Below, one piece after another: positions 2,214-41,587 of a stretch of 64,000 bases of DNA. Under the pieces are notes generated by a model. It was not told the DNA's origin. It worked only from the letters and a program-made list of their open reading frames with translations, and made no database searches. Both the position numbers and the translations under genes were made by a program. Every line of letters begins with the position of its first letter. Position 1 is the first letter of the stretch. This stretch comes from a virus: the IMG/VR virus record IMGVR_UViG_3300033997_000035, positions 1-64,000 of that record; one strand, given 5' to 3'.

Positions 2214-2215
2214 AA

Positions 2216-2710: not shown

Positions 2711-2721
2711 AAGGAAACAAT

Positions 2722-5406: not shown

Positions 5407-5744
5407 AAACCTTACTCCTGCTAACACTCACAACATTCTCATCCCTAGCATCTGAAACTTGCTACACAGATACCTTCGGAAACACACGTTGTAAGAGTGA
5501 GGGTAAAGTTGTGACAGAATATAAATCCACATCGCGTAATGATGTAGTTGACAACTCACATATTCTTGGTGTAAAGTCTACTACAGAAGGCGATATTAAC
5601 AGAGTTGACACCACTGGGACTACCCGTGATGTGGAAGGTAACAAGTGGAAAACTAATACTATCGGCAATACACATGGTGTCACCAAAGATGGTGAGAAAA
5701 TAGTATGTCATCGTGACACAATTGGTGTGTTACGTTGTAAATAA
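5403..5744 (+). CDS. secreted hypothetical protein
   Basis: Signal peptide MKTLLLLTLTTFSSLAS; ATGA overlap with the upstream gene. Confidence 0.6.
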   Translation: MKTLLLLTLTTFSSLASETCYTDTFGNTRCKSEGKVVTEYKSTSRNDVVDNSHILGVKSTTEGDINRVDTTGTTRDVEGNKWKTNTIGNTHGVTKDGEKIVCHRDTIGVLRCK

Positions 5745-5759
5745 TTAGGAGGAAATAAC

Positions 5760-6245
5760 ATGAGCATAGAAGATAAATACCCCTTTAATATCAATCTAGA
5801 GGATTCTTGGCTCGCCTACGATATTCAGAAATTTAATGAAGTTAGAAATAACTATCAAGTCGCACTACGTGATTTAAACAGTATTGAATGGGAGAAGGAT
5901 AAGCCTGTTGCTGTTAAATCGTTTGTGGTACAGTATGATTGTGCTAACGACCCACATTACTTGGCAGGTTTCTGGAAGGAAATTGCTGATTATATTGACA
6001 GTAAAGAGTCTGACACTTGGGAGTTTTCCAGACTGGAAAACGAGGAGATTGACGTAAACGACGATCATTACGAAGACTACGAAATGTTGACTACCAAGTA
6101 CACAGTTTATGCTACACTGTCAGGGGATAAACCTAATCCAGAAGAAACTGAGGAGTATGGGGCGCAACTAAGTTCGGTAGACCACTACCACAAAGAGTTG
6201 ATGCAGATTAAGGCTCGTTTAGACCGCAAACTTAAAGGAGAATGA
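5760..6245 (+). CDS. hypothetical acidic protein
   Basis: 161-aa ORF with AGGAGG RBS. Confidence 0.6.
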   Translation: MSIEDKYPFNINLEDSWLAYDIQKFNEVRNNYQVALRDLNSIEWEKDKPVAVKSFVVQYDCANDPHYLAGFWKEIADYIDSKESDTWEFSRLENEEIDVNDDHYEDYEMLTTKYTVYATLSGDKPNPEETEEYGAQLSSVDHYHKELMQIKARLDRKLKGE

Positions 6246-6246
6246 T

Positions 6247-7305
6247 ATGAGTCCACAAACACAGAAATTAGAATTAGTGGCCTACCGTAGCAAGAAAGGG
6301 TTGTATTATGCAACCACCAAATGGAACTACCGTAGGGAACGTGAGAGCATCTATAATGTAGACACAGTGAACGGCAAACCTCTAACCAAGAGTGAACATC
6401 GCGATGACTGGTATTTCTTAGAAGGAGAGGACACAATCACGTCCATTAAGAAACGTGTCCACGGTGGCTATGGTGCAGCAGCTTGGGTGCTACGAGATGA
6501 CTCTACTTTCATCGAAGGTGTTATTCCTAAAGTAGTTACACCAGAAGATGCTGATGAAATTAAAGATAGCGACGGGGATTTCTACTTTGGTTCTGGTAGT
6601 AAGTATTACTCCTATCGTGGACTCTACAAACGTGTTCGCGAGGAACTACCTTACGTTTTTGTAGATGTGGAGTTTCAAGTAGACTACAAAGGGACTATTG
6701 AGCATAGCTTGATTGAAAACAATTACAAGGATGCTAAGATTACCTTAATCCAAGGTTCTGGTTGGACAGAGAAACCTACAGAGGCTAAACTATCCGATAT
6801 CACGCATTACTATGAACTAGAGGAGTTGTTGACACCAGATTTGGTTATCCACAATCGTCCTTGCTACATTGGTAGTGATACAACATTTGCTATCGTGCGT
6901 AACCATATCAAGAAGAATATCAACCCCAAGTATGCACGTGTGACTAGCGATTATAATTTCTGTTTCACTGTGAAGAAACGTGTGCAGATTAAGCCCTATG
7001 TTTACAAAACTGAAATTAAGAAAAGTAACGGGCGTAGTTACGCCAAACCACAATTCAAGTCTCAAACTATTGAAGCTAAGGAAGTGGAAATCTTCGAGAT
7101 GTGTCCTAGCAAGAAGTATCAAGACTACACACCAATTGCGGGATTCAAGGGTGAAAACTTGGCTGACTTGGTGGAGAACATTAAGCTATACTTAGACCAT
7201 CTTATGGATGTAATTAATGCACCTGTGCATGAGTGTGAGCATTGTGGTGGTTTGGGTTGCACAATTGAGAAGGTTGAATACATGAATGAACGTGGAGGTA
7301 AATAG
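6247..7305 (+). CDS. hypothetical protein with C-terminal CxxC cluster
   Basis: 352-aa ORF; C-terminal HECEHCGGLGC. Confidence 0.65.
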   Translation: MSPQTQKLELVAYRSKKGLYYATTKWNYRRERESIYNVDTVNGKPLTKSEHRDDWYFLEGEDTITSIKKRVHGGYGAAAWVLRDDSTFIEGVIPKVVTPEDADEIKDSDGDFYFGSGSKYYSYRGLYKRVREELPYVFVDVEFQVDYKGTIEHSLIENNYKDAKITLIQGSGWTEKPTEAKLSDITHYYELEELLTPDLVIHNRPCYIGSDTTFAIVRNHIKKNINPKYARVTSDYNFCFTVKKRVQIKPYVYKTEIKKSNGRSYAKPQFKSQTIEAKEVEIFEMCPSKKYQDYTPIAGFKGENLADLVENIKLYLDHLMDVINAPVHECEHCGGLGCTIEKVEYMNERGGK

Positions 7306-7306
7306 T

Positions 7307-7633
7307 ATGAAAACATTAGCACAATTGCTTATTGAATATAATATCAAACACGGGTATGATGTATCAATGGACGGGTTACGTGAAGCACTATTAGAATGCT
7401 TCCCTACCAAATGGCAAGGTGATTCTATAGAATATCGCTGGCGTGTAGATGAGTCTCGTGTTGTGGAGATTATGGATGGTAACGCACCCAGATACTTCAA
7501 GTTTACGGTGTGTTCCTATTCTGGCGAGAACAGTTGGGAAGATGCAGGGTTCTATTGGCAAACCTTCGATGAGATGGTTGAAGTGGAACCAAAGGAAGTG
7601 AGAAGTATTGTATGGGTAGCTAAAGGAGAATAA
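7307..7633 (+). CDS. hypothetical protein
   Basis: ATG at 7307 directly after the upstream TAG; the earlier in-frame start overlaps the upstream gene. Confidence 0.55.
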   Translation: MKTLAQLLIEYNIKHGYDVSMDGLREALLECFPTKWQGDSIEYRWRVDESRVVEIMDGNAPRYFKFTVCSYSGENSWEDAGFYWQTFDEMVEVEPKEVRSIVWVAKGE

Positions 7634-7634
7634 T

Positions 7635-8117
7635 ATGAAACACAAACATTATGATAAAATTGTTGCTAAAGCTGCCAACATGAATTTGGTAGTATTCTGT
7701 AGGGATGCATATCACGTAGAGGAGGGTTGGTTTGAAACTCATAACCTCCCAATTCAAGATGAGTTTGACTACTACCTCTGCCTCCCACAACATAAGGAAG
7801 CTTGTCTGGCGTGGTTGAATGGTGCCAATATTAATTTTACATCCGATGTTTGGTCTGATGTGGTTGCCGAGGTCAAAGCCCAGTCACTAAAAGAGGGTTT
7901 CCTCTTAGGGTATAAACAGTGTGGTATGGGTATCGACCAAGGTTCAGCACCACAATGCATTCTTAATTTAGGGGATAATTTAGGGGACGCTAGTATGACA
8001 CAAGCACAAAAAGCGGCTTTAAAGAAGTCGGAAGCGTTAAAACGTCTTGGTAAAGCTGGCAATGCAAAACAGTTAGCTGACAACTTGCAACGGACTCTTC
8101 AGACTCTCACAAGGTAA
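7635..8117 (+). CDS. hypothetical protein
   Basis: 160-aa ORF with AGGAG RBS. Confidence 0.55.
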   Translation: MKHKHYDKIVAKAANMNLVVFCRDAYHVEEGWFETHNLPIQDEFDYYLCLPQHKEACLAWLNGANINFTSDVWSDVVAEVKAQSLKEGFLLGYKQCGMGIDQGSAPQCILNLGDNLGDASMTQAQKAALKKSEALKRLGKAGNAKQLADNLQRTLQTLTR

Positions 8118-8659: not shown

Positions 8660-8872
8660 ATGGATAAAATTAAATTAACACAAGAGCAATACAAATATCT
8701 TGGTATCGGTAATGCAGCTAGTATACTACTGAGCATGGAGGATTTCCTCAATGAGCTTGTATCAGCACTAGATGACGATGAGGCTTCAGGATTATGTGAT
8801 GCATTGTTGGATAGAGTGAATACAGTCTATGAGGAAGCGTCTGGTATTGTCCAATTTGATGTGGAAGGTTAA
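8660..8872 (+). CDS. hypothetical acidic protein
   Basis: AGGAGG RBS; 70 aa. Confidence 0.5.
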   Translation: MDKIKLTQEQYKYLGIGNAASILLSMEDFLNELVSALDDDEASGLCDALLDRVNTVYEEASGIVQFDVEG

Positions 8873-8883
8873 TAGGGGAACTT

Positions 8884-9078
8884 ATGGTATACACAACACC
8901 AGATGACTGTAAGAGTGCATTAGGTAAGAGGATGCAATATTGGCGTTCAGAAAGGCCAGATGAGTGGCTGATGGATGAGTTTATTGCTGAAGTGGAAGAT
9001 ATGTATGAGGAGATTAAGAAGCTAGAATTTATGGTTGAGAATGGGTTGGGGTATGAAGACCTCATACAAGATGTTTAA
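8884..9078 (+). CDS. hypothetical protein
   Basis: 64-aa ORF with a GGGGAA RBS-like sequence. Confidence 0.5.
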   Translation: MVYTTPDDCKSALGKRMQYWRSERPDEWLMDEFIAEVEDMYEEIKKLEFMVENGLGYEDLIQDV

Positions 9079-9098
9079 GGTAGATTAAGGAGCTAATT

Positions 9099-9515
9099 AT
9101 GAATTTCGTAGAGTATGTGGAAACAAAGTATAAAGACTACCCAGAGGAGACTTCAATCTCCCTGATTAAAGCTTATTGCAAGTATGCTGCCAGTAATGAC
9201 CACTTGTTATTCGAAGAACACATTAAAGAAAACTTCAACAATGCCTTCGGAGAGGATAAGTGGGATGATTATGTAGAGGCTAAGAAGATTGCAAAGGTAT
9301 TAAGTGGTGAAGCGAAGGAAGTGTTACGTCAAATCGTTAAAAAGCCTACATTCGATGGTGATGTTGTCAGTAAAGCAGGTAAGTCTGAGTTATTCAAACA
9401 CAAACTTATTCTACGCATATGCAACAATAATGAATTTGGGGATAATGCTGCCAATTACCTAGGTTGGTTGGTTTACGAGGAGATAATTAAAAATGAGTGT
9501 ACAATGTATGAATAA
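9099..9515 (+). CDS. hypothetical protein
   Basis: 138-aa ORF with AAGGAG RBS. Confidence 0.55.
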   Translation: MNFVEYVETKYKDYPEETSISLIKAYCKYAASNDHLLFEEHIKENFNNAFGEDKWDDYVEAKKIAKVLSGEAKEVLRQIVKKPTFDGDVVSKAGKSELFKHKLILRICNNNEFGDNAANYLGWLVYEEIIKNECTMYE

Positions 9516-10892: not shown

Positions 10893-12650
10893 GTAAAGAG
10901 GGTTTATGAGTTCAATTTCTAAAGCTAGAATCCTCTCTAACACACCCTCCATTTAAACACCCTAGGAAGCTCTATAATGGGCTTCCACTCTACCCTATAC
11001 AAACACACTGCCAATCTATTATCCCCTCTCCTGATGCTTCCTATGAGCTTTAAACAACTATCTAACACATGGGTTAACCTCTAGTTTTATTTTAATTACC
11101 TCTCTAAACCAACATTTCTTATTATTACCCATATTTCACCTCAATTCCTTCCTTAGTGTTGTATAATAAAATACACTGTTCATAATATCAACAACGTGTT
11201 GTACTGTATCGTATCCACAATACAAACATCGCAATAGTGTATTATTGTATTGATACACTACCGTACATAATTGATATGTAAACCAATTCTTTTATATAAA
11301 CATTTTACTTTATATTATAGTTGCCCTAGCAACGCCCTTCTAAGTTTACTCCCAAAACTACCCCACCCCCGCCATAACGGGAAATAAAACATACCCCCTT
11401 TCCTGCAATTTAGCAGGAGAATAATATCATGTGGCATGGTTACATGCAGGATATCAATTTAAAGCTCCATAGAGCTATGCTAATAGACGTTTGCACCAGA
11501 TGTGGTGCGATGGTATTACATTGTCAGAAACATTCATCCTAGTGTGATATAGAGCGTTTGGTGAAGGGATATAAATTTTAGTGATGGTGTAATATTTATC
11601 CCTTCGGGATGGAATTAATATGTCGTCACTTTGTGACGAATTTATACATTTTCGATAGGAATAACACCCCCACCCCCAATTTTTGGGGTGAATATTGATA
11701 CCCCTGTTCCATAGGAACGAGATTGAATTAATGTGGGATATTACTGTCGCTACGTCTGAGGTATTAAGCAAGGCTGCTGCCAGCCTGTCTGATATTCTCT
11801 ATCTTGGTGTAATATCAAGGCCATCGGCCTAAGCCCTCCAATCCCTTGCTGTGCCTGAATTGGCACCAATAACCACACCTTTCATCTTAGATGAGAACCA
11901 TTATCATCTAACCGTTTTCTATACACTCGTATAACCTGATTTAAATAAGAATAATTCTTATTAGTGCCGTGTGCAGGCACAAACATATTACTATTCGATA
12001 ACGATAATCGTTATCACTTAGATTACTATTCAATACTGAATTTATGGTGTAATGATAATGATTATTATTAGTGTTATTATTTAATGTTGTGTCGAGTGAC
12101 GACACGTTAGGATATAAAATGGCTTGCATTGTGCAAGCAAGGCGAAGAGGGAAAAGATTGTTAAGCATTCCTTCGGCATACTTAACAATTCCCCACACTT
12201 ATCACTTCTCTCAACATTATCTAATCTATACGCAACATGCGTATGAAATTTAATCCTATATACCTACGGTATAACTAAGCATTCGTCCATCAGCTTACCA
12301 ACTTTACCCCACACTATTACTCTATGATGCTATGCATCAAACTATTCAATTCATACGCATGATGTGTATAACAATATAACCTTGCATACAATGTATGCCA
12401 TTACTCACTATCGTCTGACATTCTACTCATCACTGAACAATTACCTTATAAGATGCACTCGCATCTAAACAATAATCACTATCATTTGCATTTTGCAAAT
12501 AACATTAGAATTTTGTCATGTTATGACATAGATGGATATAATTTAAAGTTGGCATAGTGCTTGCTAGTGATTAGATTGTTGTGTGATGTGTATTATTTAA
12601 TAGTTGACAATAGTATAAAAGTGTGCCCTTGTTTTATTAGTTTATACAGC

Positions 12651-12728
12651 GACAAAATGTCGTATCGAGCATAATTAAGCAAATCAATAACTTAGTCATT
12701 TCTCGATATGACAAATTGTCGTATTGAG
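12651..12728. promoter_or_regulatory. iteron/operator pair GACAAAWTGTCGTATYGAG
   Basis: Two copies (12651-12669 and 12710-12728, 17/19 identical), 59 bp apart. The second overlaps the -35 of the RHH gene promoter. Confidence 0.5.
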
Positions 12729-12753
12729 TGAGATCAAGAGTTTATGGTAAAAT
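12724..12753 (+). promoter_or_regulatory. promoter TTGAGT-N18-TGgTAAAAT (extended -10)
   Basis: -35 at 12724-12729, -10 at 12748-12753 with TG at 12745-12746. Confidence 0.5.
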
Positions 12754-12800
12754 AGCATATAAACGATAATAGTTATCATTTACTTACAAAGGGCTTTAGG

Positions 12801-13007
12801 ATGCAATTAGACTTAAATTTGCCTAGGCATATGATAGACCAGCTCGATCAATTAAGCGGGGAGGCCCCTCTTAGGTCTTACATTAGGAAGATTTTACAAG
12901 ATCATATTTCTGGTAGCTGTGCTACTGTCCCCAATACTGACACAGGTATTAATACAAATGAAGATAAGAACCAAAGCACTGGACTTAGTAGAAGTTCACA
13001 AGGTTAA
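12801..13007 (+). CDS. ribbon-helix-helix (CopG/Arc-like) DNA-binding protein
   Basis: N-terminal MQLDLNLPRHMIDQLDQL...YIRKILQDH pattern typical of an RHH fold. Confidence 0.5.
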   Translation: MQLDLNLPRHMIDQLDQLSGEAPLRSYIRKILQDHISGSCATVPNTDTGINTNEDKNQSTGLSRSSQG

Positions 13008-13032
13008 CGCTGAAGAGGGGGCGCACTACTTT

Positions 13033-13488
13033 ATGATGCCTCAATACTTAACAAAGATTTCAACGGTAGAAAATAAAGATAATGGCTTGTGTGTTAAGCT
13101 AGATATAGAATGCTGGGCCATATACTCTTACTTATCTGCATATGGCTATGCCCACGGATATAATTCAATCTATCCAAATCAGGATCAGATAGGGATAGAC
13201 TTGGGTATGAATGTTCGTACTGTGCAACGCAAGATAGGGTTACTCAGTGAGGCTGGTTTTGTGTTAGTAACTAGGATGAAACTAGGCGGCAAGAAAGACA
13301 AGAATGTCTACCGCTTAAAAATCCCTAGGATGCTGCCACGGCTTAGGTATTTAGATATTATGGGGAATATTTTAGAAGGTAAACTCTATAAGTTTGATCC
13401 CAGCATATTCCACAAAGAGAAGTCTGCAAAAGGTAAAGATGTTACCTTTGAAATGATCCAAGCACTGAAGGGGCCAGAAACAAACTAG
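13033..13488 (+). CDS. winged-helix replication-initiator-like / HTH protein
   Basis: IYPNQDQIGIDLGMNVRTVQRKIGLLSEAGFVLV HTH motif. The start is chosen after the upstream stop, with GAAGAGGGG upstream. Confidence 0.5.
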   Translation: MMPQYLTKISTVENKDNGLCVKLDIECWAIYSYLSAYGYAHGYNSIYPNQDQIGIDLGMNVRTVQRKIGLLSEAGFVLVTRMKLGGKKDKNVYRLKIPRMLPRLRYLDIMGNILEGKLYKFDPSIFHKEKSAKGKDVTFEMIQALKGPETN

Positions 13489-13568: not shown

Positions 13569-13811
13569 TTACAAACTGTATTCTATCGTTACGTTTGAAC
13601 CCTTGTATTCCATCATTAGTCTGGCCTTGGCTCTATCTGCAATTGCAGCCAGTCCTGTGATGTTTCTCTGTTTGTGGCTAGTGTAGTCTAGCACTTTACC
13701 ATTTTTATTTTTAGCTATCACTTTTAATATTACAAACTGATCGGCTATTAAGTGGCCTGATATTTTGTCAGTTTTAGTAGTGACGGCTTTTAAGATTTCT
13801 TGGAATTTCAT
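13569..13811 (-). CDS. hypothetical protein
   Basis: 80-aa ORF, last gene of a leftward unit. Confidence 0.55.
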   Translation of the reverse strand: MKFQEILKAVTTKTDKISGHLIADQFVILKVIAKNKNGKVLDYTSHKQRNITGLAAIADRAKARLMMEYKGSNVTIEYSL

Positions 13812-13857
13812 GGTCGTGTCCTTAGTTATCGGTGTTTTTAAAAATCTTTATGTGGTG

Positions 13858-13885
13858 AATATAACACGTCTATCACAGGATACAA
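13858..13885 (-). promoter_or_regulatory. leftward promoter TTGTAT-N16-TATATT
   Basis: Read on the minus strand; preceded by the 29-nt repeated upstream element at 13896-13924. Confidence 0.45.
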
Positions 13886-13951
13886 GCGTTATTTTAAATA
13901 AATTCCAATTATTTTCACCTAACAATAAAGCCCTCGAAAGAGGGCTTTATT

Positions 13952-14161
13952 CTATCTTCCACCTAAATTGTCGGGTTGGCTTTTATAGCAATTTGGCAAT
14001 TTTTGCCACTCAGCGTAGAGGTCTTTTAAAGCTAATTTTTTCAATCTTATTATATTGAGCATCCTATCTTCAGAAAGCCTTTCCGTATGATCTTTAATGT
14101 ACCTTATAATGTCTGCCATTTTGTTGTTGTAATCTACTACTAACCAATTGCATGTTTTCAT
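13952..14161 (-). CDS. hypothetical protein
   Basis: 69-aa ORF downstream of the promoter at 14211-14238. Confidence 0.5.
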   Translation of the reverse strand: MKTCNWLVVDYNNKMADIIRYIKDHTERLSEDRMLNIIRLKKLALKDLYAEWQKLPNCYKSQPDNLGGR

Positions 14162-19197: not shown

Positions 19198-19677
19198 TTA
19201 AAAATATTTTTCAAGGTGATCGCGGCAATATTGGTTAAAGCTGTGTTCGCAGTCTATAACGTGTTTAACACCGTCAACAGTGATGTGATAGGCTTTCTTG
19301 CGTAGGTCGAACCGTTCGCACAGGCGATCAATTAAAACGCTGTGGTCAGCCTTTGACGGCTCCCAGTCATTATAAAAGTATAGCTTAGCTGTGACAGGTA
19401 ATGCTTCATAATCAAATCGATGATCTGTATTGATATTGATCCCACGTTTGAGGCATTCAGCGGCTAGGGAGTCGTGGCGATTGTGTAGCCATTGCAATTT
19501 ATCTAAAAAGAATAACTCATGACCTGTGCCCATGCGGAAGGTAGCAGGGATGCGTGATTTGTCCAGCTTTGTTTTACCTGAGATGATCTTGTTTGGGATG
19601 CGTAAAAGCTCACGTGTTTCAGCGATCAACCATTCATTAGTGAGGTCTAATGGGTCTATTGTATTGATACGTGTCAT
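19198..19677 (-). CDS. denV: pyrimidine-dimer DNA glycosylase / AP lyase (T4 endonuclease V family)
   Basis: MTRIN..L.NEWLIAETRELLRIP...FRMGTGHELFF.DKL.WL..R...LAAECLKRG.NI aligns along its length with T4 DenV as I recall it. Confidence 0.9.
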   Translation of the reverse strand: MTRINTIDPLDLTNEWLIAETRELLRIPNKIISGKTKLDKSRIPATFRMGTGHELFFLDKLQWLHNRHDSLAAECLKRGININTDHRFDYEALPVTAKLYFYNDWEPSKADHSVLIDRLCERFDLRKKAYHITVDGVKHVIDCEHSFNQYCRDHLEKYF

Positions 19678-22062: not shown

Positions 22063-22920
22063 CTACATAACTACCCCGTCTTTACCTCGCTCCCCAATAT
22101 ATGGGAAGTTATAAACATTAAAATCTGACGGGTAGTTTTCCCGTAAATAAGTATCATAAGCCTGTGCAGCCAAGATTGCAGTAGGGTAGTATTCTGTAAA
22201 TCGAAAATGTCCATCCCTGAATACCCTAGTCCTGTACTGGTTATTGACGCAGTTTTTCCTGTAATCCACACCAACATACCCAGTAGTGTTGTCAATTGAC
22301 CTACGACAATTTCTAGAGTTTTCTATATGAGATGCCCGTCTCAGGTTGGATACTCTGTTATCTAGTTTATTACCATCGACATGGTCGCCTACGACATCAG
22401 AAGTTGGTAAGTCCTGTATTCCTAAAATCACCCTATGTAATAGGATATGATTATGTGTAGGGTAGTAACATAAATTATTTACATCTAGTCTACGCAAATT
22501 ATCCTTAGACATCGTCGCCTTTATATAATCGTTATGGTCTTTTATCCATAGTATTTTTGAAAGTTCTGGGTAAATGTCTATATCTACGAGCGTGCTATCG
22601 ACAACCTTATATCCTATTTTACTGGTTCCTGATAAAACAGGAATACGTTTAACCATTTTATCATCTGTCGAAGAATCCCATTCGAACATTATTTCATCAA
22701 AGGTCTTACCTATCATACCACCACTTTGCTGCATTAGTTTTACACACCCATAACACAGACCCGCCTTGGCGTATAGTAATCCTAATGTATCTCTGGCATA
22801 TTGGGCACCTTTGTTTGTAAATCTTGGTACGATGTGATCCCACTTACAAACCTTTCCAGTAAAGAAGTAATATAATCCTTTATTCTGAGCATCTTCTCTT
22901 TTTATTACTTTAAATCTCAT
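22063..22920 (-). CDS. free-standing HNH homing endonuclease with AP2 DNA-binding domain
   Basis: HRVILG...GDHVDGNKLDNRVSNLRRASHIENSRN (HNH) followed by TGYVGVDYRK...YRTRVFRDG...AAQAYD (AP2-like). Confidence 0.8.
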   Translation of the reverse strand: MRFKVIKREDAQNKGLYYFFTGKVCKWDHIVPRFTNKGAQYARDTLGLLYAKAGLCYGCVKLMQQSGGMIGKTFDEIMFEWDSSTDDKMVKRIPVLSGTSKIGYKVVDSTLVDIDIYPELSKILWIKDHNDYIKATMSKDNLRRLDVNNLCYYPTHNHILLHRVILGIQDLPTSDVVGDHVDGNKLDNRVSNLRRASHIENSRNCRRSIDNTTGYVGVDYRKNCVNNQYRTRVFRDGHFRFTEYYPTAILAAQAYDTYLRENYPSDFNVYNFPYIGERGKDGVVM

Positions 22921-23336: not shown

Positions 23337-23534
23337 TTAGTCTGAGTTCCTCACCCAAACAGCGTCTTTCTTGTGTGGACAATTACCATCATCTGGACAA
23401 TCAGCACCTACGTCACAATGGGTGTGTGCATTCAACCAACACAAGTATTCATAGTAGTTGCAATCAGGACAGCATCCGTCCTCACATGCGATGCTATTAC
23501 CATTGTCTCGACAATTGTTTACTGGCTTTGTCAT
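23337..23534 (-). CDS. small cysteine-rich protein (11 Cys in 65 aa)
   Basis: CRDNGNSIACEDGCCPDCNYYEYLCWLNAHTHCDVGADCPDDGNCPH. Confidence 0.5.
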   Translation of the reverse strand: MTKPVNNCRDNGNSIACEDGCCPDCNYYEYLCWLNAHTHCDVGADCPDDGNCPHKKDAVWVRNSD

Positions 23535-23542
23535 AAATCTCC

Positions 23543-24871
23543 TTAGAATTTCTTAGCTACTCTACAATTAAAATTACTTCCCAATACTTCAGCCCATGCA
23601 TCATACATAAATCCCTCTAATTGTTTCTCATAATCAAAGCATGTTACCACACTGTCATGGTAGGGTAAGAAAGGTGCATCAATTGCTTTCATCTTACGCA
23701 TTATTCTTAAGAGGATTTCAGAGTCTAAATACTGGAGTTCATCCCATACGCCTCCTGCAATCCTGAAATGACTCTTTGCATAATAGTTGTAACTTTCGAT
23801 AGCACGTATAATGGCTTTAGAATTTGACAGCCCTGTAACACCATAAAACAGGTTAGCCTTGGCAGAAGTCCAATCATCTTCCTTTACGAACTTATTAATA
23901 ATTGAAATATTCTTCTTCCAGAACTTCTTAAACGTGGCCTCTGGTGTCCCTGAGTTTAGCAAGAACATACAGCAAATTTTAATAATTGAACGGATCTTCT
24001 TAGGGTCATCACATTTTATAAGGTGTGATAAATCAACTCCATATGGATCAAAATCTTCTGGTAGTAGTATTTCCTTTTTCTCTGCAATAATAAGTAAGTG
24101 GTTAGACTTGTAATCTAATTCGATAACAGGTTTACCGTCTATGATATACAATGGCCGCTTGCTGCTCTCAAGACACTGTAATCCACCAAAATAAATCCTT
24201 CCGCCCCATCCTATTCTCTCGAAGAATATCCTTTGTAGGTCTACCTTCTTTGGATAGGTGACAAAACGAAAAGAGTGGGTATTTAACCAGTCACTCATCT
24301 CCTTAATCTCTTTGCGGTGCTTACCTATCCCCTGAACATTTTTTAGTTCAACTACAATTTCTTCACCGCCGTCTATCTTGACTGTTTCTCTCACAATAGC
24401 ATGGTCAATCACATAGGAGCTTCCAAACTTGTCCACATGTTCCTGTGGGAAAAGATTTATTAGCTTGTCAGTGAACACTACACAGCTAGACATATGCTCG
24501 CCTGTTTCTCTGTTATTGTAACCAGAGTAGTTTTCAATAAAGCCTTCCTGTTCAAGTTTATCTAACATCTTCATCAATTTATAGTGTGAGATTTTCTTTT
24601 GCTTAGGATGTTCTTTGTTGAATGTGAGATAGTGTTTACTATTTCTTACTAAGTAGAAACCTAGGTCTAATCTTTTCAGTGAATATGTTATACAACAAAG
24701 AAAGAGTTTAATCTCTTCGTTATACCCCTTACCAAAAAGTTTTAGCAGTATATCACATTGACTTTGGAAGATGTGGTGGTAGTTCCTTATCTCCAGATTA
24801 AGATATGTGTTGCCAACTTTTAATCGTAGATGGTCTCTTTCCTCCGCAGTTAGATTCTCTAATATTTTCAT
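23543..24871 (-). CDS. divergent family-A (Pol I / T7-like) nucleotidyltransferase-like protein, 442 aa
   Basis: GGRIYFGGLQCLESSKR resembles TGRLSS..NLQNIP. VIELDYKSNHLLIIAE resembles motif A DYSQIELRxxAH. KIRSIIKICCMFLLNSG is a degenerate motif B. QYLDSEILLRIM resembles QGTAADIIKxAM. LPYHDSVV resembles motif C VHDE/HDS. Confidence 0.45.
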   Translation of the reverse strand: MKILENLTAEERDHLRLKVGNTYLNLEIRNYHHIFQSQCDILLKLFGKGYNEEIKLFLCCITYSLKRLDLGFYLVRNSKHYLTFNKEHPKQKKISHYKLMKMLDKLEQEGFIENYSGYNNRETGEHMSSCVVFTDKLINLFPQEHVDKFGSSYVIDHAIVRETVKIDGGEEIVVELKNVQGIGKHRKEIKEMSDWLNTHSFRFVTYPKKVDLQRIFFERIGWGGRIYFGGLQCLESSKRPLYIIDGKPVIELDYKSNHLLIIAEKKEILLPEDFDPYGVDLSHLIKCDDPKKIRSIIKICCMFLLNSGTPEATFKKFWKKNISIINKFVKEDDWTSAKANLFYGVTGLSNSKAIIRAIESYNYYAKSHFRIAGGVWDELQYLDSEILLRIMRKMKAIDAPFLPYHDSVVTCFDYEKQLEGFMYDAWAEVLGSNFNCRVAKKF

Positions 24872-25039
24872 AACACCCCTGTATCGCTGAAACGTGAGAG
24901 TTTACTGGGATGTCCCAGATAATTTCCCACTATAATCATAAACTTATTTTAATATACTTCTTATTATTGACAGATATACATAAGAATTATGTATAGTTGG
25001 GAGAGTATACCCGTAAGAGAGGAAGGGAGGGAAAAAAAA

Positions 25040-32861: not shown

Positions 32862-34754
32862 GTGAGTGAAAGAGAAAAGGGTGATTTTATTGGACATTTT
32901 CATTGTGTGGCAAATGAATTTGATAACAAGGACAGTTGCTCTAGTAGTGACGGTTTAGCTATTTACATGAAACTTGACGACTCCGACAATAAATACTTTG
33001 ACGGGTATTGTTGGGTGTGTCATCAAGCATTCCATAGAAATGAGATTAACAACAGTTCATTGGCTACTGAATTAGGTTTAGACCCGAATGGTGTGAGCGT
33101 AAAAGAGTTCACTGTGAAACCTAAAGAACTACCGTTGACAACTGAACATATTCAGGAATTGAAACAGAGTGTTGGGTTCACTGACAAACCATATAGGTCA
33201 TTAAAACCTGAATGGTTGCGACATTTTGGTTTTATGGTAAAGCGCGATTCGAACGGTAATCCGTTGCAGGTATATTATCCAGAGACTGAATCAAACAAAG
33301 TTACTGGGTTTAAAATCAGGGTTATTCCCAAGAACTTCAATAAGATTGGTCGAACTGGTCTGAGTAGTCAACTAGGTGGTCAATTCAGATACAAGTCACC
33401 AACTCGACGATTGTTGATATTAGGTTCTGAAAATGACGGTGTTGCTGCTTGGGGTATGTTAAAAGAATATTATGATGGTAAGGGGTATGGTGATTATGAA
33501 AACGTGCATGTAGTGTGGGGGACTTGTGGTGAAGGTAGTTTGTTTAAACAATGTTCTGCACAATATGATTTCATTGATGGGTATGAAGAAGTTTATATTG
33601 GTATGGATACTGACCATGCTGGTGATGAAGCACTTGCAAAGTGTTTGAAAGTTTTACCTGCTAACAAAGTTAAGATTTGCAAATGGACACTGAAAGACCC
33701 ACATGAAATGCTTGAAAAGGGTAGAACTGGTCAATTTATACGTGACTTCTTCAATGCGAAGGATTTTATTGATAGTGGTATTAAATCTGCCGCTGATGCT
33801 ATTTCAGAAGTTGAAGAGTTTTTAACTGCACCTAAAATCACATTACCTCCATACTTACATAAGTTACAGGAGAATATGAGAGGGGGTATTAAGTCAACTG
33901 GTGCCATTATTAATATCATCGGCGATACATCGATAGGAAAGTCGTTCTTCAGCGATAACTTAGAAATGCATTGGTTCTTCAACAGCCCATTGGTTCCTAC
34001 AATTATCAGCTTAGAACGCACCGCTGGTGAACTACTAACGGACATGTATTCTTTGTATCTGAAAAAGAACTTGACTTGGTTCAAAGATGGACATGACGCT
34101 GTTGAATATTTACATAAGCCCGAAGTAAAGGATTTATGTGAATATCTTGTCTATAATGAGGACGGCAAGAGTCGTTTCTATATCATTGATGAACGCGATG
34201 GTAGTATTACTACACTTAAAAAACAAGTGGATAAGGCTATTAAAAAGTATGGTAGTAAATTGATAGTATTTGACCCACTCACCGATTTCCTTCGATCTTT
34301 AGGTAATGAAGCACAGGAGGAATTCATGATGTATCAGAAGATGATGAAAAAGGATGGTATTGTATTTGTCAACGTATTACATACCCGTAAGCCCCCATCA
34401 TCAAAAGATGGAGATTTTAGAAAAGTTTCCGAGTATGAGGTATTAGGTAGTGGATCATTCATTCAAAGTAGTGATATTAACATTGTACTGAATCGCAATA
34501 AAATGGCTGAAGACCCAATCGAACGTAATACCACTATAGTAGATATGCCTAAATGTCGTGGTGGGGTTACAGGGGAGGCATGTAAACTTTATTATGATCA
34601 AGAAACTCGACAGCAGTATGATTTGGATGATTATTTTTCATCACCTAGGCAACAAAACCCTAATGTTAAAGAAGACGTTGTTAAAAATCCACTTTCTTCA
34701 CCTAATAACATAGTAACAGAGGATGAAAACGGTGTTGTTGAATCAACATTTTAA
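32862..34754 (+). CDS. bifunctional DNA primase-helicase (T7 gp4-like)
   Basis: N-terminal Cys/His zinc motif (HCV...CWVCH), Toprim DTDHAGDEA, Walker A IIGDTSIGKS, Walker B LIVFDPLTD. Confidence 0.8.
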   Translation: MSEREKGDFIGHFHCVANEFDNKDSCSSSDGLAIYMKLDDSDNKYFDGYCWVCHQAFHRNEINNSSLATELGLDPNGVSVKEFTVKPKELPLTTEHIQELKQSVGFTDKPYRSLKPEWLRHFGFMVKRDSNGNPLQVYYPETESNKVTGFKIRVIPKNFNKIGRTGLSSQLGGQFRYKSPTRRLLILGSENDGVAAWGMLKEYYDGKGYGDYENVHVVWGTCGEGSLFKQCSAQYDFIDGYEEVYIGMDTDHAGDEALAKCLKVLPANKVKICKWTLKDPHEMLEKGRTGQFIRDFFNAKDFIDSGIKSAADAISEVEEFLTAPKITLPPYLHKLQENMRGGIKSTGAIINIIGDTSIGKSFFSDNLEMHWFFNSPLVPTIISLERTAGELLTDMYSLYLKKNLTWFKDGHDAVEYLHKPEVKDLCEYLVYNEDGKSRFYIIDERDGSITTLKKQVDKAIKKYGSKLIVFDPLTDFLRSLGNEAQEEFMMYQKMMKKDGIVFVNVLHTRKPPSSKDGDFRKVSEYEVLGSGSFIQSSDINIVLNRNKMAEDPIERNTTIVDMPKCRGGVTGEACKLYYDQETRQQYDLDDYFSSPRQQNPNVKEDVVKNPLSSPNNIVTEDENGVVESTF

Positions 34755-34766
34755 TTGGAGGATTTA

Positions 34767-36962
34767 ATGAAAGATTGGATTTGGGACATCGAGACTTACC
34801 CTAATGTGATAACATTTTGCTTTGCTGACGTTAGTGCTAGGAAGATGAAAGTATTTGAATTGTCTAACCGTAAAGACCAACGCAATGAGTTATTTGAATA
34901 TCTCAGAAATATATACAGGGTTAAAGGAAGGCTAATCGGCTTCAATAGTGTCGGTTTCGATTACCCTGTATTACATAAACTTCTGAATGACCAGACAATG
35001 AGTGCTAACCAAATTTATAAGTATGCCATGAAGGTTATCAGTGCTGAAAATAAATGGGAGCACGTAGTTAGAACCAAAGATGAATTTATCACGCAGGTGG
35101 ATCTATTTAAGATTCACCACTTTGATAATAAAGCAAAAGCTACGTCATTGAAAATGATTGAGTATAATTCTCGTTCAGCTAATATTGAAGATCTACCGTT
35201 CCCAGTAGGTAAAATGTTGTCCGATGTAGAAATTGATGTATTAATCAAATATAATATGCATGACGTTAAAGAAACCTTTAAGTTTTACGAACAAAGTATG
35301 GAACAAATTGAATTCCGTGAGAAGTTGCAGAAAGATTATGGCATGAATGCACTCAATTGGAATGACCCGAAGATCGGTTCTGAATATTTTATCATGGAGC
35401 TTGAAAAATCTGGTATTAAATGTTATGACCAAGCTGGTAAGGTTCGACAAACTAAACGACCTTATATTGATTTGGCGAACTGTATTTTCCCATATATCGA
35501 GTTTGAGCGACCCGAGTTCAAGGCCGTCTTGGAGTGGTTCAAGCAGCAGCGTATTACTGAGACAAAAGGTGTATTCAGTGATATCCTAGAACATGAGTTA
35601 GGTGATGTAGCCAAATATGCTCTCATGGTAACCAAGCAGGAGAAGTTGAAGGATAAACCCACCGAACAACAAATCGCTGAGTTGAAGAAAGTCAAACCTT
35701 TGTGTTGGATTGAAGAACGTGAACTGAAGGCTAAGTTACCTAAGAAAGATGGAGGTGGCTTCAAAAAAGCTTATTATGTGTGTTGGCGAATCGCAGAAAG
35801 TCTAAACGTTGTAATCAATGGTATGTGTTATGTGTTCGGGGTTGGCGGCTTGCATTCGAGTATGGATAAACATGTTGTCGTCTCAGATGATGAATATATC
35901 ATAGAAGACGAGGACGTGAGTTCATATTACCCTAACTTGGCAATCAAAAATCGAGTATTCCCTCAGCATTTAGGTGTGGAATTCTGTGATATTTATGAGT
36001 ATTTGTATAACCTACGTAAGACTTACGATAAAAAGTCAGCAGAAAATGCAATGCTCAAGTTGGCCTTAAACGGGACATATGGTAAGTCTAACGACAAGTT
36101 TAGTTCATTCTATGACCCTAAGTTTACAATGAGCATTACGATTAACGGTCAGTTATCACTGTGCATGTTGGTGGAGAAACTATTAAAGCTTGATGGGTTA
36201 CAAATTATTCAGTGCAACACGGATGGGGTAACATTTAGACGTAAGCGTGAACATGAACAACGTACTTTAGATATTGTAAAGTGGTGGCAAGATACTACTA
36301 AGTTAGAACTTGAGAGATGTGACTACTCTAAGATGGTAATACGTGATGTGAACTCATACATTGCTGTGAAATTGGATGGTAGTTTGAAAAACAAAGGTGC
36401 GTATGAGTGGAAGGATTTACCTCACCATAAAAATCAATCCGCACTTGTTGTAAAAATGGCGGCAGAAGCTTATTTGGTGAACTCCGTAGACCCTGAAGAT
36501 TTCATCCGTAATCACCAGAACTCGTATGATTTCATGTTAAGGGTTAAGGTTCCACGTAGTAGTAAACTTGTGTTAGTTGATGAAAACGGTAACGACCATC
36601 AAATACAGAATATTTCCAGATATTATGTATCTACAAAAGGTGGCGACATGGTGAAAGTTATGCCACCAATTGAACCAACTAAAACAGAACAATTATGGGA
36701 AAATGTTGATGAGATGGATGAGGTCGTGATATCATCAAAATCTGACATTGCTAAGTATGAAAAGAAAGGTTACAAATTCGTTAAGGAGGTTGAAACTGAA
36801 TGCCCAGAACGAAGATTTAATATTGAAGCTGGTTGGAAAACTAAAGTAACCAACGACATTAAACAATTTGACTGGGATATAGATTATGACTATTATATCG
36901 AACGGACTTGGAAACTGATTGATTTTGCTGACGGTGATGACGTTGTAGAATCAGAAGATTAA
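34767..36962 (+). CDS. family-B DNA polymerase with 3'-5' exonuclease domain
   Basis: Exo I WDIETYP, Exo II NSVGFDYPVL, Exo III YNMHDVKE. Pol motif A DVSSYYPNLAI (DxxSLYPS), motif B KLALNGTYGKS (KxxxNSxYG), motif C QCNTDGV (DTD-like). Confidence 0.8.
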   Translation: MKDWIWDIETYPNVITFCFADVSARKMKVFELSNRKDQRNELFEYLRNIYRVKGRLIGFNSVGFDYPVLHKLLNDQTMSANQIYKYAMKVISAENKWEHVVRTKDEFITQVDLFKIHHFDNKAKATSLKMIEYNSRSANIEDLPFPVGKMLSDVEIDVLIKYNMHDVKETFKFYEQSMEQIEFREKLQKDYGMNALNWNDPKIGSEYFIMELEKSGIKCYDQAGKVRQTKRPYIDLANCIFPYIEFERPEFKAVLEWFKQQRITETKGVFSDILEHELGDVAKYALMVTKQEKLKDKPTEQQIAELKKVKPLCWIEERELKAKLPKKDGGGFKKAYYVCWRIAESLNVVINGMCYVFGVGGLHSSMDKHVVVSDDEYIIEDEDVSSYYPNLAIKNRVFPQHLGVEFCDIYEYLYNLRKTYDKKSAENAMLKLALNGTYGKSNDKFSSFYDPKFTMSITINGQLSLCMLVEKLLKLDGLQIIQCNTDGVTFRRKREHEQRTLDIVKWWQDTTKLELERCDYSKMVIRDVNSYIAVKLDGSLKNKGAYEWKDLPHHKNQSALVVKMAAEAYLVNSVDPEDFIRNHQNSYDFMLRVKVPRSSKLVLVDENGNDHQIQNISRYYVSTKGGDMVKVMPPIEPTKTEQLWENVDEMDEVVISSKSDIAKYEKKGYKFVKEVETECPERRFNIEAGWKTKVTNDIKQFDWDIDYDYYIERTWKLIDFADGDDVVESED

Positions 36963-37035: not shown

Positions 37036-37212
37036 ATGTATAGAACTTACGAAGAAATCTTGCAATCTATGATAGATGGTAAAACTACGTCTAGGAATGC
37101 AACACGTTATATTTACAATTACAAGAAACAGAAGAAATACGATCTTGCTGTTATGTGGTTTAGAGCTAAAATTGAATATGAGGAAGATTATGGAAGCGAA
37201 AAAGATACTTAA
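37036..37212 (+). CDS. hypothetical small protein (58 aa)
   Basis: AGGAG RBS; overlaps the start of the endonuclease gene. Confidence 0.4.
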   Translation: MYRTYEEILQSMIDGKTTSRNATRYIYNYKKQKKYDLAVMWFRAKIEYEEDYGSEKDT

Positions 37213-38458
37213 TAAAAGTGCAAAACAGTTACAGTTTATAGGCAGTTCATTTCATAAAGAAGGGTTAGGTGTGTTAACTGTTACAGACTCATACAATAAA
37301 GGTAATAATACTTTATTTTCTGTACACTGCTCTGTTTGTTCAAATGATTGTGAATTATTTCCTGAAAAAGAAATGCTAATAAGTAAGAATAATCTAAATC
37401 AAGGTAAGTACCCATGCAGGTGTTCTTCTGGTTGGAAACCTTCTAATTATCAGTATAAGGTGATGGTGCTGAGGTTCGCAAAACAAAATAAAGATGAGAT
37501 TTTAGATTTTGATGAAAATTCAAATATTAAGGTTCGCACTAAAGGGTTTAAGGATTGGCGTGTGTCCGCAAATGAATATCTGAATGGTAAACGCTCTCTA
37601 GGTGAAGCAATGTCTAATAAGATTACTAATCTAAGAAAACCAGATAACGTATACATAGATAGGTTTATGGGTGGCGGATCTTTCTTGGAAGGTACTAGGT
37701 TTTGGAGGTCTGATAAAAGAGATTCAAGGGGTTATTATTCTTACTGGAACTATATTTGTCCGTTATGCTCGCAAGATGAGTATGTTGAAAATAATCTATG
37801 TAGTGGTATTTTTACAGGAGCACTAAGTACGTTATCTGCTGGAAGTTTAGCCTGTAGGTGCTCTCAGAATTTTAAATGGTCACAGCAGCAAAGAGAGTAT
37901 CAACTTAAGAAGATACTTACTAGCGAGTCCTGCCAATTCACAGGCTGGTGTGGCAAATATTCTGGGGCGTTTTCGAAGTTTAATTGGATATGTAGTAAAG
38001 GTCACGAATGTTCCACTGAAGTTTCCAACTTTATACACCTTATGCACAGATGTAAAACTTGTTCTGAAAGTGTGTTCGGATTTTATCATGAGCGCTCCAA
38101 CGATAATGATTTTCTATACTTATTAAAGTTTTGTAACACTGATGAACTTTTCTATAAAATAGGTAGAACATTTAAACCAAAAGAGAGATTCAAATATTTC
38201 AGTGAATTCTATAACATAGATGTAGTATCTGTAGTAGAAGATTTGCATATCAATGTTTACCAAAAAGAAAAATATTTCAAGAAAGAACTCTCTCTTAGAG
38301 GTTATCATTATACTCCAAAAGAATCATTTGATGGTAGTGCTCAGGAATGTTTCACACAAAATATTCTTAATCATTCTGAAGTGGTTCATATTTTTGGTCT
38401 AAAGGAGTTTGAAAATGATCCAATCAGCCACACTACTAACCTATCTACCTCGCGGTAG
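37190..38458 (+). CDS. free-standing T5orf172/GIY-YIG-like homing endonuclease with repeated Cys-rich N-terminal modules
   Basis: C-terminal FLYLLKFCNTDELFYKIGRTFKPKERFKYF (T5orf172-type motif). The N-terminus has repeated C..C..C[RS]C modules. Located directly downstream of the polymerase terminator. Confidence 0.6.
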   Translation: MEAKKILNKSAKQLQFIGSSFHKEGLGVLTVTDSYNKGNNTLFSVHCSVCSNDCELFPEKEMLISKNNLNQGKYPCRCSSGWKPSNYQYKVMVLRFAKQNKDEILDFDENSNIKVRTKGFKDWRVSANEYLNGKRSLGEAMSNKITNLRKPDNVYIDRFMGGGSFLEGTRFWRSDKRDSRGYYSYWNYICPLCSQDEYVENNLCSGIFTGALSTLSAGSLACRCSQNFKWSQQQREYQLKKILTSESCQFTGWCGKYSGAFSKFNWICSKGHECSTEVSNFIHLMHRCKTCSESVFGFYHERSNDNDFLYLLKFCNTDELFYKIGRTFKPKERFKYFSEFYNIDVVSVVEDLHINVYQKEKYFKKELSLRGYHYTPKESFDGSAQECFTQNILNHSEVVHIFGLKEFENDPISHTTNLSTSR

Positions 38459-40486: not shown

Positions 40487-41587
40487 ATGTTATTATCACA
40501 TAAGGTCGAATTACGACCTTCTAAAGAACAAGAACAATATCTATTACAACTGTGTGGAACCACAAGGCACTTGTGGAATCAACTACTTCACTACTTTAGT
40601 AGTGGTGATGTTAAATGGAATAAGAAGACCGCTAGGGAAAAGATGTACTCTTTAAGGGAAGAATTCCCTTGGTACAATGACTACTCCGCTAACATCGTTA
40701 GATGTTCTATAGATAATCTTGATAATGCTTATAAGAGGTTCTTTAAAACTAAGAAAGGTTACCCTAAGTTTAAGAGTAAACATCAGAAGCGAAGCTTCAA
40801 TATCTATGAATCTCGGAAGTTTTCTGTAGTAGGTAGGGATTTTAGAATAGAGAAATTCAATAATTCTAAGAAATCTAAACCTATTAAGATGAGGGAGAAG
40901 CTACGCTTTGATGGCAAGGTAAAACAAGCTAATGTCTCTTTCCAGAATGGAAAGTGGTTTTGCTCTTTCTTAGTAGAGGTGGAAAACTACAAAAATATCT
41001 CTGGACAACACGGAAGTGTTGGTATTGATTTAGGTATCAAAGATTTAGCTACACTATCTGATGGAACTACGTTCCAAAAGAGTAACAAACTAACTCTAAG
41101 TCTGTATAAATTAGTTAAACTTCAAAAGAAGTTATCTAAGAAAAAGAAAGGTTCTAATCGTTATGCGAAAGCCAAGCTTTCGATTAGTAAGCTTCATTTT
41201 AGAATACGTAAACAACGTGAAGCGTTGCTTCACAATGTAAGCCATACAATTACATCTAAGTATAAAACTATCTGCTTAGAGGATCTGTCTGTTTCGTCTA
41301 TGACGAAGGGTAAGAATAAGAATTTGAATAGAATGATCTTAGATGTAGGTATGTATGGGTTTCGTAGGCAACTGGAGTATAAATCTTTCTTAAGAGGTGT
41401 TGACATCTACTTCGTGGATAGATATTATCCATCAAGTAAGATTCACAACGAATGTGGATTTAAGAACGATAACCTTAAACTAGGAGAATCTTCTTGGAAG
41501 TGTAATAACTGCGGTCAACTTGTTGACCGAGATTTAAATGCCTCTAAGAATATCCTTAAAGAAGGTTTGCGTTTAGCAAACAAGTAA
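40487..41587 (+). CDS. tnpB: TnpB (IS200/IS605-IS607 family OrfB, RNA-guided RuvC nuclease)
   Basis: N-terminal HKVELRPSKEQEQ. RuvC residues VGIDLGIKD, ICLEDLS and VDRDLNASKNI. C-terminal zinc-finger region. Confidence 0.9.
   Translation: MLLSHKVELRPSKEQEQYLLQLCGTTRHLWNQLLHYFSSGDVKWNKKTAREKMYSLREEFPWYNDYSANIVRCSIDNLDNAYKRFFKTKKGYPKFKSKHQKRSFNIYESRKFSVVGRDFRIEKFNNSKKSKPIKMREKLRFDGKVKQANVSFQNGKWFCSFLVEVENYKNISGQHGSVGIDLGIKDLATLSDGTTFQKSNKLTLSLYKLVKLQKKLSKKKKGSNRYAKAKLSISKLHFRIRKQREALLHNVSHTITSKYKTICLEDLSVSSMTKGKNKNLNRMILDVGMYGFRRQLEYKSFLRGVDIYFVDRYYPSSKIHNECGFKNDNLKLGESSWKCNNCGQLVDRDLNASKNILKEGLRLANK

Follow-up and report, generated by a model that had tools for sequence, protein, structure and literature searches.

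Analysis of a 64,000-nucleotide stretch of viral DNA (IMG/VR record IMGVR_UViG_3300033997_000035, positions 1 to 64,000; hereafter the window, to which all coordinates refer unless another sequence is named) identifies a minus-strand gene, 23543-24871, whose 442-residue product combines a minimal polymerase core of the PolA (family-A) superfamily, resembling the transposon-virus polymerases (TV-Pols), with a putative N-terminal DNA-binding module. Residue conservation and structure prediction together show a family-A-superfamily palm-fingers fold in what is predicted to be a catalytically intact, exonuclease-less minimal polymerase. This bears out the central claim of a preliminary description of the window, which had proposed a compact, exonuclease-less polymerase of the family-A/T7 RNA polymerase (RNAP) superfamily with altered nucleotide-selection residues: the catalytic residues are invariant, the fold is recovered in the model and the selection residues are replaced. 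The assignment draws on the listing of open reading frames (ORFs), in which the gene has an ATG start and a stop codon at 23543-23545, on an end-to-end match in the PHROG database and on an AlphaFold2 model; the exact protein is also present on a 127.9-kb assembled contig.

The catalytic core occupies residues 216-442 (23546-24226, minus strand, as for all parts of the gene) and comprises a family-A-type palm and reduced fingers, as recognised by Foldseek and hhalign. All five motif strings picked out in the preliminary description occur in the translation, and in the order claimed; their residue positions were recomputed here. A beta-hairpin motif, GWGGRIYFGGLQCLESSKR (residues 221-239; 24155-24211), is followed by motif A, KPVIELDYKSNHLLIIAE (residues 247-264; 24080-24133), which contains the metal-binding D253, and by a segment (residues 274-308; 23948-24052) in which the start of the fingers, FDPY...KKIRSIIKICCMFLLNSG, leads into motif B, or the O-helix (R294xxxK298...M302...N306); these three elements are placed by conservation and by the model. 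The helix LQYLDSEILLRI (residues 379-390; 23702-23737), located through conservation and an RNAP profile, is the counterpart of the Pol I 'QGTAAD' element and of 786-QDGSH in T7 RNAP, and motif C, PFLPYHDSV (residues 400-408; 23648-23674), located through conservation and hhalign, contains H405-D406 with the second metal-binding Asp.

Conservation was counted in an alignment of 60 family members reaching down to approximately 21% identity. The sole invariant columns are G224, R225, R239, D253, K298, H405 and D406, and the motif A and motif C aspartates, whose loss from homologues had been set beforehand as grounds for abandoning the polymerase assignment, are thus each retained in 60/60 sequences. 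At least 90% conserved are Q232 (56/60), E251, H258 (57/60), Y277 and R294 (each 59/60), D383 and S384 (each 58/60) and S407 (57/60); Q380 is kept in 53/60, position 302 is Leu or Met in 57/60, position 306 is Asn in 53/60, and D275 is present in 31/60. These invariant and near-invariant columns coincide with the residues attributed to the Pol I motifs, and the resemblance is not accidental. R225, Q232 and R239 are, to judge from motif order, the probable equivalents of Klenow R668, the Gln of 'LQN' and R682, respectively.

The AlphaFold2 model of the whole protein, built from an alignment of 17 sequences, has a mean predicted local distance difference test score (pLDDT) of 92 and a predicted template modelling score (pTM) of 0.85. 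When this model was compared with the Protein Data Bank (PDB) using Foldseek, 45 matches had E <= 0.001, and all 50 matches listed were family-A DNA polymerases (probability 0.92-1.0), among them Taq, Bst, mycobacterial Pol1, the apicoplast polymerase and Pol theta. Template modelling (TM) scores against these enzymes were low, at approximately 0.3, as expected because a 230-residue core is being compared with polymerase domains of 550 residues. In the predicted viral structures of BFVD the best matches were full-length twins from Aeromonas and Vibrio phages (TM 0.65-0.79), and beyond the family itself the annotated matches were mostly PolA DNA polymerases, together with a few phage single-subunit RNAPs. 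Within the model, strands 213-217 and 223-227 fall in the hairpin region, strand 247-254 and then helix 257-265 form motif A, and helix 290-306 carries the RxxxK sequence. The modelled fingers are very small (approximately 110 residues); N-terminal to the beta-hairpin lie a helical hairpin (33-66) and a single helix (182-196), either or neither of which may form the thumb.

The best structural matches, the family-A DNA polymerases (E. coli Pol I Klenow, Taq, Bst, T7 gp5, Pol theta and the apicoplast enzyme), thus share with the window protein the order of hairpin Arg, motif A Asp, motif B Arg/Lys, Q-helix and motif C His-Asp, but differ from it in several respects. The window protein has neither a 3'-5' nor a 5'-3' exonuclease domain, consistent with the earlier statement that such a domain is lacking (there is no Pfam match, and residues 1-212 fold as a unit of their own); its fingers are cut down, and its thumb probably is too; and the relationship is not detected by sequence profiles. 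No Pfam entry matched the window protein even at E 10, no NCBIfam entry or profile of the PADLOC defence-system library matched it, and none of the 60 family members matched DNA_pol_A (PF00476) at E <= 0.01. The RNA_pol family (PF00940) likewise gave no match for the window protein, and a weak one for a single member of the 60 (E 0.0046). Searches of PDB sequences with phmmer and hmmsearch returned no PolA chain, only chance matches such as Bcl-2 and the NLRP4 PYD. Failure to find a polymerase palm had been named in advance as a refuting outcome, and here the two lines of evidence diverge: the palm is found by structure search, whilst plain sequence-profile searches fail to reach PolA.

The family itself is large. 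PHROG 4756, annotated as 'unknown function', matches the window protein end to end (E 2e-65); 27 homologues were found in an indexed protein collection, and full-length relatives in 52 GenBank records of Vibrio, Aeromonas and Pseudoalteromonas phages, mostly of 115-140 kb and some of approximately 90 kb. An exhaustive profile search at E <= 0.001 returned 8,089 clusters at 50% identity, and in the best 150 of these nearly all sequences are 400-460 residues long and matched over their full length. At least two genome annotations, those of Pseudomonas phage vB_PsaM_M1 and Rheinheimera phage Barba31A, already label family members 'DNA polymerase'. Re-searching a named protein collection with a broad profile added no further proteins or names, and a scan of 185,579 species-representative genomes found no relative, a weak negative given that it used one short peptide pattern. 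Neither tblastn nor a hidden Markov model (HMM) detected a second copy in the window.

The preliminary description had noted that the O-helix Tyr is replaced; this holds across the family, and the steric-gate Glu and Phe762 of Pol I are replaced as well. When the selectivity positions are located by ungapped spacing from the motif A Asp (D+5) and the motif B Lys (K+4, K+8), rather than by structural superposition, Pol I E710 (the steric gate) corresponds to His in 57/60 members (H258), F762 to Leu or Met in 57/60 (position 302) and Y766 (O-helix) to Asn in 53/60 (position 306), whilst at motif C Pol I E883 corresponds to Ser in 57/60 (S407), giving HDS in place of HDE. In hhalign comparisons motif C falls on H811-D812-S813 of T7 RNAP and on H653-D654-E655 of T7 DNA polymerase, and alignments to either single T7 sequence covered motif C only and were not significant; the T7 RNAP numbering used here (M635, Y639, H811-D812-S813) was checked on the T7 sequence. 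Against profiles of five sequences each, the core aligned with T7-type RNAPs at E 9e-4 over 54 columns, from the LDS helix to motif C, and with T7-type DNA polymerases at E 0.61 over motif C only. Sequence comparison thus favours the RNAP profile, and structure comparison ranks DNA polymerases first; the family is about equally distant from both kinds of enzyme, and its sugar specificity may be that of either.

Residues 1-215 (24227-24871) form the N-terminal module, which in the model consists of the helical hairpin noted above, a likely winged helix at approximately residues 78-135 and a beta-rich linker. The preliminary description had held this region to be unrelated to the polymerase family, and it does indeed appear as a separate module in the models; residues 1-212 modelled alone gave a pLDDT of 89. 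All 50 of the best Foldseek PDB matches of this model are winged-helix regulators (PadR, Pex, LmrR, MarR, GntR and Fur), each match being weak (E 0.008-0.2, probability up to 0.93), and stray Pfam or NCBIfam matches of individual members are to the Cdc6_C winged helix, MarR, YjcQ and RepA_IncFII. With moderate confidence, therefore, the segment at 24467-24640 is predicted to be a PadR/MarR-like winged-helix DNA-binding domain. The module diverges faster than the core, with mean pairwise identities of 21% and 31%, respectively.

Enzymes of this minimal kind have been known since 2008, when Iyer, Abhiman & Aravind defined the TV-Pol family (PMC2579912). They described a bi-helical thumb, formed by an antiparallel coiled-coil pair that precedes a beta-hairpin bearing an invariant Arg; an RRM-like palm with two Asp residues; and a fingers insertion, placed behind the first strand of the palm, that carries an Asp and RxxxK. 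Many TV-Pols have an extra N-terminal domain, of which TV-PolN was predicted to be all-helical (PMC2579912). TV-Pols were described as genes of mobile elements, one founding member residing in a transposon inside cyanophage Ma-LMM01; they were predicted from gene context to be primase-polymerases, and were proposed to resemble the ancestor of Pol I-type DNA and T7-type RNA polymerases (PMC2579912). In the window family the hairpin Arg is found as the invariant G224-R225, the palm aspartates as the invariant D253 and D406, and RxxxK is kept; the fingers Asp is present in the window protein (D275) but in only about half of the family, as counted above. Among the ORFs in the first 50 kb of Ma-LMM01, the family HMM matched best to gp030, a 506-residue hypothetical protein whose gene adjoins two transposase genes. 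Aligned by hhalign with gp030 and six homologues, the family gave E 6.8e-6 (probability 85%, 171 columns), or E 9.9e-6 for the core only, with the hairpin Arg, both Asp residues, the Lys and two features peculiar to these families, the His at D+5 and the Asn at K+8, all in register, and with no detectable relation between the two N-termini (E 0.36). That gp030 is the founding Ma-LMM01 TV-Pol is probable, as no other ORF in the 50 kb scanned matched and transposase genes adjoin it; the text of PMC2579912 names no gene.

On this comparison with the gp030 family, we file the window protein as a putative TV-Pol-like variant. The likenesses are a minimal family-A-type core devoid of nuclease domains, occurrence in viruses and an extra N-terminal domain; the differences are that the window gene lies in the early region of a lytic myovirus of approximately 128 kb with its own replicase, and that its N-terminal module contains a predicted winged helix where TV-PolN was predicted all-helical. 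Neither the window nor 24 related loci showed a conserved neighbour of the D5-like helicase, resolvase, integrase or transposase type. The most divergent homologue from the first search, P0027 (518 residues), is encoded on a 23.9-kb contig (L031, k141_79202; 1941-3128 and 4947-6503), where a gene for a phage-type integrase lies three genes upstream and one for an Mrr-type restriction nuclease is close by, a neighbourhood that resembles the TV-Pol mobile elements.

Among the enzymes that the 2008 paper (PMC2579912) placed in the TV-Pol family, CCPol is the sole one to have been biochemically tested. The CCPol-MP primase of SCCmec, a PolA-SSB primase, starts DNA strands de novo once its DNA-binding module is attached, priming only with the partner protein MP bound, and its authors compare MP with the domains by which T7-type RNAPs bind their promoters (Bebel et al. 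2020, PMC7581432); CCPol has since been viewed as a shortened offshoot of Pol I without the TV-Pol N-terminal domain (Rice 2023, PMC10061031). Because it offers a functional model for the possible working of the window protein, the differences deserve mention. CCPol keeps E710 and F762 and uses deoxynucleoside triphosphates (PMC7581432), where the window family has His and Leu/Met; it needs a small OB-fold protein encoded by another gene and shares an operon with a helicase, and neither such a partner nor a helicase is conserved at the window gene; and CCPol elements occur in Bacillota, whereas the window family is found in phages of marine Gammaproteobacteria. The gene downstream of the window polymerase encodes a 65-residue Cys-rich protein, which is not conserved beside the gene elsewhere, and no helicase is adjacent.

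The genomic setting bears on function. The gene lies in a long run of small minus-strand genes (approximately 13.5-30 kb) that has a non-coding divergence region (10.9-12.8 kb) at one end and a plus-strand replication block at the other; this block contains a primase/helicase (32862-34754) and a 735-residue DNA polymerase (34755-36962). In agreement with the earlier mention of a family-B replicase, the latter matches the PHROG 'DNA polymerase' annotation at E 1e-186 and carries the PolB-type exonuclease domain PF10108. The polymerase-like gene stands apart from the replication module, as an accessory early gene. Genes for a tail sheath and a baseplate wedge protein, also present in the window, identify the phage as a myovirus. 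In many contigs of approximately 90 kb the gene is the first of its unit at a divergent junction. Vibrio phage vB_CoeS_P1 (PV206818.1, 137 kb), the closest complete phage, has three full-length paralogues, at 43.8, 76.9 and 121.3 kb (12001-13314 of locus L002, 19772-21334 on the minus strand of L027 and 24295-25605 of L028); the proteins, of 437, 520 and 436 residues, are 23-53% identical to the window protein and all keep the catalytic residues.

Taken together, we tentatively favour, with slightly less than even confidence, a DNA-targeted, self-initiating (primase-like) polymerase. In its favour are the primase-polymerase prediction made for TV-Pols, the dependence of CCPol on a bound DNA-binding partner, the fusion of a putative DNA-binding fold to the core, the faster divergence of that module and the retention of the catalytic residues in three paralogues of one phage. 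The winged-helix module would hold the enzyme on particular DNA, a role comparable to that of MP in CCPol-MP (in trans) or of the promoter-binding domain of T7 RNAP (in cis), and the small, open core would start a strand de novo on the template and extend it a short distance. Because the E710, F762 and Y766 positions are replaced throughout the family, the product might be RNA or a mixed strand. The enzyme would serve an accessory early function rather than that of a replicase, and paralogues within one genome would be directed to different sites. ColE2 Rep and plasmid primase-polymerases provide precedents for one polypeptide that both recognises a DNA site and makes the first primer. They are analogues only, since their catalytic folds (AEP-type or other) are unrelated to that of the window protein, for which no origin was identified.

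Several observations weigh against this proposal. The phage already encodes a primase/helicase and a replicase, and the gene in question, surrounded by small early genes, is on the opposite strand approximately 8 kb away. When the ORFs of 24 loci were clustered all against all, no helicase, single-stranded DNA-binding (SSB)-like protein or recombinase proved to be conserved beside the gene, so that the contextual argument on which the TV-Pol primase prediction was built is missing here. The copy number of one to three would be unusual for an essential replication initiator. De novo initiation is not readable from sequence, no target site was identified, the individual winged-helix matches are weak, and the kinship with the founding TV-Pols runs through the probable identity of gp030.

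The nearest alternative is that the family comprises miniature DNA-dependent RNA polymerases for transcription, with the winged helix recognising promoters and the paralogues serving different gene classes. The window protein shares with T7-like RNAPs and the N4 mini-vRNAP a common superfamily, the HDS form of motif C (57/60) and Met/Leu at K+4, as at T7 RNAP M635, and has lost the steric-gate Glu; its core fits the T7-type RNAP profile better than the T7-type DNA polymerase profile, one member weakly matches RNA_pol in Pfam, and it is an early gene with a fused DNA-binding module, itself a functional analogy to T7-like RNAPs, in which de novo initiation is aided by an N-terminal DNA-binding domain. 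Furthermore, no RNAP or sigma factor is annotated in vB_CoeS_P1. The RNAP-profile match is, however, short and weak, and Foldseek ranks DNA polymerases first, with no RNAP among the 50 best PDB matches. Single-subunit RNAPs conserve a Tyr that selects ribonucleotides (Y639 in T7 RNAP), yet the window family has Asn at this position in 53/60 members. At 442 residues the protein is approximately half the length of T7 RNAP (883 residues), and half the size or less of the T7-like and N4 enzymes, and its very small fingers probably leave no room for a specificity loop. Nor did the 64-kb window contain a conserved T7-style promoter repeat, no multi-copy conserved motif of at least 16 nt being found in a search that did not cover shorter or structural promoters. 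On balance we regard a transcriptase as unlikely.

A DNA repair function, in which the enzyme would fill gaps after phage ultraviolet-damage endonucleases in substitution for host Pol I, is suggested both by the nearest folds, which are Pol I-type enzymes and Pol theta, and by the neighbourhood. A DenV-type pyrimidine-dimer glycosylase (19198-19677, minus strand; PHROG 1183, E 2e-42) is encoded 3.9 kb downstream in the same strand block; DenV also lies downstream of family members in L029 (2.3 kb; 13632-14111) and in the distant L025 (0.6 kb; 7594-7992), and 6.3 kb from paralogue 2 of vB_CoeS_P1 (128894-129370), whilst UvdE, which is not homologous to DenV, is found 2.3 kb downstream in L033 (11585-12607). 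This recurrence, at 0.6-6.3 kb in 4-5 of approximately 26 loci, could reflect functional linkage or simply a shared early-region location: all of these loci are early-gene blocks, in which chance co-location is not rare, and there is neither adjacency nor operon-like coupling with DenV or UvdE. Repair and translesion polymerases of family A keep the steric-gate Glu and the O-helix Tyr, both of which are replaced here, and a sequence-targeting winged helix and three paralogues would not be expected of a gap filler; such a role therefore seems quite unlikely.

The gene might instead be a conflict-related or selfish accessory, either a counter-defence enzyme making decoy or protective nucleic acid or the remnant of a TV-Pol mobile element propagating within phage genomes. 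HNH homing endonuclease and TnpB genes are frequent neighbours of family members (in L033 a TnpB gene lies 1.5 kb upstream), the copy number varies, one distant member sits three genes from an integrase and TV-Pols have been described in mobile elements (PMC2579912). In L029, the closest long contig (68% identity), a Lar restriction-alleviation gene (8744-9112) lies upstream of the orthologue and a homologue of the anti-Gabija protein Gad2 (11688-12818) one gene downstream, a neighbourhood rich in counter-defence genes. Anti-defence genes are, however, usual in the early regions of lytic phages, which makes the neighbourhood weak evidence; the protein matches nothing in the defence-system library, no repeats or recombinase flank the window copy, and no mechanism can be derived from the sequence, so that we consider this account improbable. 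That the fold is catalytically dead and has been reused as a DNA-binding regulator would agree with the presence of a winged-helix module and the loss of the O-helix Tyr and steric-gate Glu. It is nonetheless highly improbable: the metal-binding Asp, triphosphate-contacting Arg/Lys and primer-contacting Arg/His residues are invariant or nearly so in this family of more than 8,000 clusters and are kept in all paralogues, and this retention across family and paralogues argues for selection on catalysis.

Although TV-Pols as a kind are not new, a literature search found no paper on the large phage branch, its winged-helix N-terminus, the triple replacement of selection residues, the paralogues or the accessory early context, and the branch of 8,089 clusters is absent from Pfam and NCBIfam and of 'unknown function' in PHROGs. 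There is a small chance that the family consists of single-polypeptide, DNA-templated RNA-synthesising enzymes of approximately 440 residues, acting as site-specific RNA primases or miniature transcriptases. Were this so, a winged helix would do the work of the extensive elements by which T7-type RNAPs bind promoters and achieve specificity, and a His, Leu/Met and Asn triad would take the place of the sugar-selection residues of Pol I and T7 RNAP; at about half the length of T7 RNAP these could be the shortest family-A-type polymerases to initiate de novo, and they would be widespread, since the family has over 8,000 clusters and a single phage can carry as many as three paralogues. In any case, the combination of fully retained catalytic residues, three uniformly changed selection residues and a fused putative DNA-binding domain makes an old question testable, namely how small a family-A core can be and still copy a template, initiate de novo and select DNA or RNA as its product. 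A self-targeting polymerase of 440 residues could serve as a tool enzyme, and the annotation of thousands of 'hypothetical' phage proteins could be corrected.

Around the gene, the 168-bp intergenic gap upstream (24872-25039, minus strand) tentatively contains a short 5' hairpin, CTGGGAcaTCCCAG, and a possible promoter of the gene's own, a weak sigma-70-like match (CTGTCA-16-TAAAAT). Shuffled sequence yields as many sites of this type, and the gap is poorly conserved with relatives. The 65-residue Cys-rich ORF (23337-23534, minus strand) starts 9 bases after the polymerase-like gene, encodes 9 Cys and 3 His residues, and matches PHROG 8842, of unknown function, at E 9e-18; its product may bind zinc. 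BLAST clustering detected no counterpart of it next to the gene at other loci. A Cys-rich domain replaces the thumb in one TV-Pol and stands alone in viruses (PMC2579912). Two genes downstream of the polymerase-like gene is a free-standing HNH endonuclease (22063-22920, minus strand; Pfam HNH_3, PHROG 99 and 36769). Directly after the replicase gene, a 460-residue protein (37076-38458, plus strand) has three CapR-homology stretches (PF21817, E 1e-33; 'endonuclease' in PHROG). The 64-kb window contains no tRNA gene; in vB_PsaM_M1, the one related phage of approximately 90 kb whose annotation was examined, the polymerase-like gene is followed at a distance of 2.5 kb by tRNA genes.

The preliminary description had also drawn attention to a hairpin tract some 11 kb from the gene and had speculated that the two might be connected. 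The tract is real: 17 perfect hairpins (stems of at least 6 bp, mostly with 3-nt loops) occur at 11264-12529, compared with 1.7 in shuffled sequences (maximum 8). They are of unrelated sequence and lie within a non-coding stretch of approximately 1.9 kb (10900-12800), where the plus- and minus-strand gene blocks diverge and where no tRNA and no significant Rfam match was found; the stretch is possibly an origin, a terminal region or a structured-RNA region. The proposed connection to the polymerase was rejected as unsupported: none of 23 related loci has a comparable tract within 6 kb of the gene, and the complete genome of vB_CoeS_P1 lacks one despite its three paralogues. A second concentration of hairpins lies in the coding sequence of a TnpB-type gene (40487-41587, plus strand; OrfB_IS605, Cas12f1-like TNB and HTH_OrfB_IS605), which contains 15 perfect hairpins with 6-7 bp stems and 3-5 nt loops in all three codon phases, compared with 1.8 +/- 1.3 (maximum 6) in 300 synonymous-codon shuffles. 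Hairpin counts are at background level in other TnpB genes (in L033, and gp031 of Ma-LMM01) and in the remaining genes of the window. Three further Vibrio phages (L042, L043 and L044; 74-82% DNA identity) have orthologues with 15, 9 and 10 hairpins, respectively, and the closest of these keeps 85 of the 97 stem pairs, with some compensatory changes.

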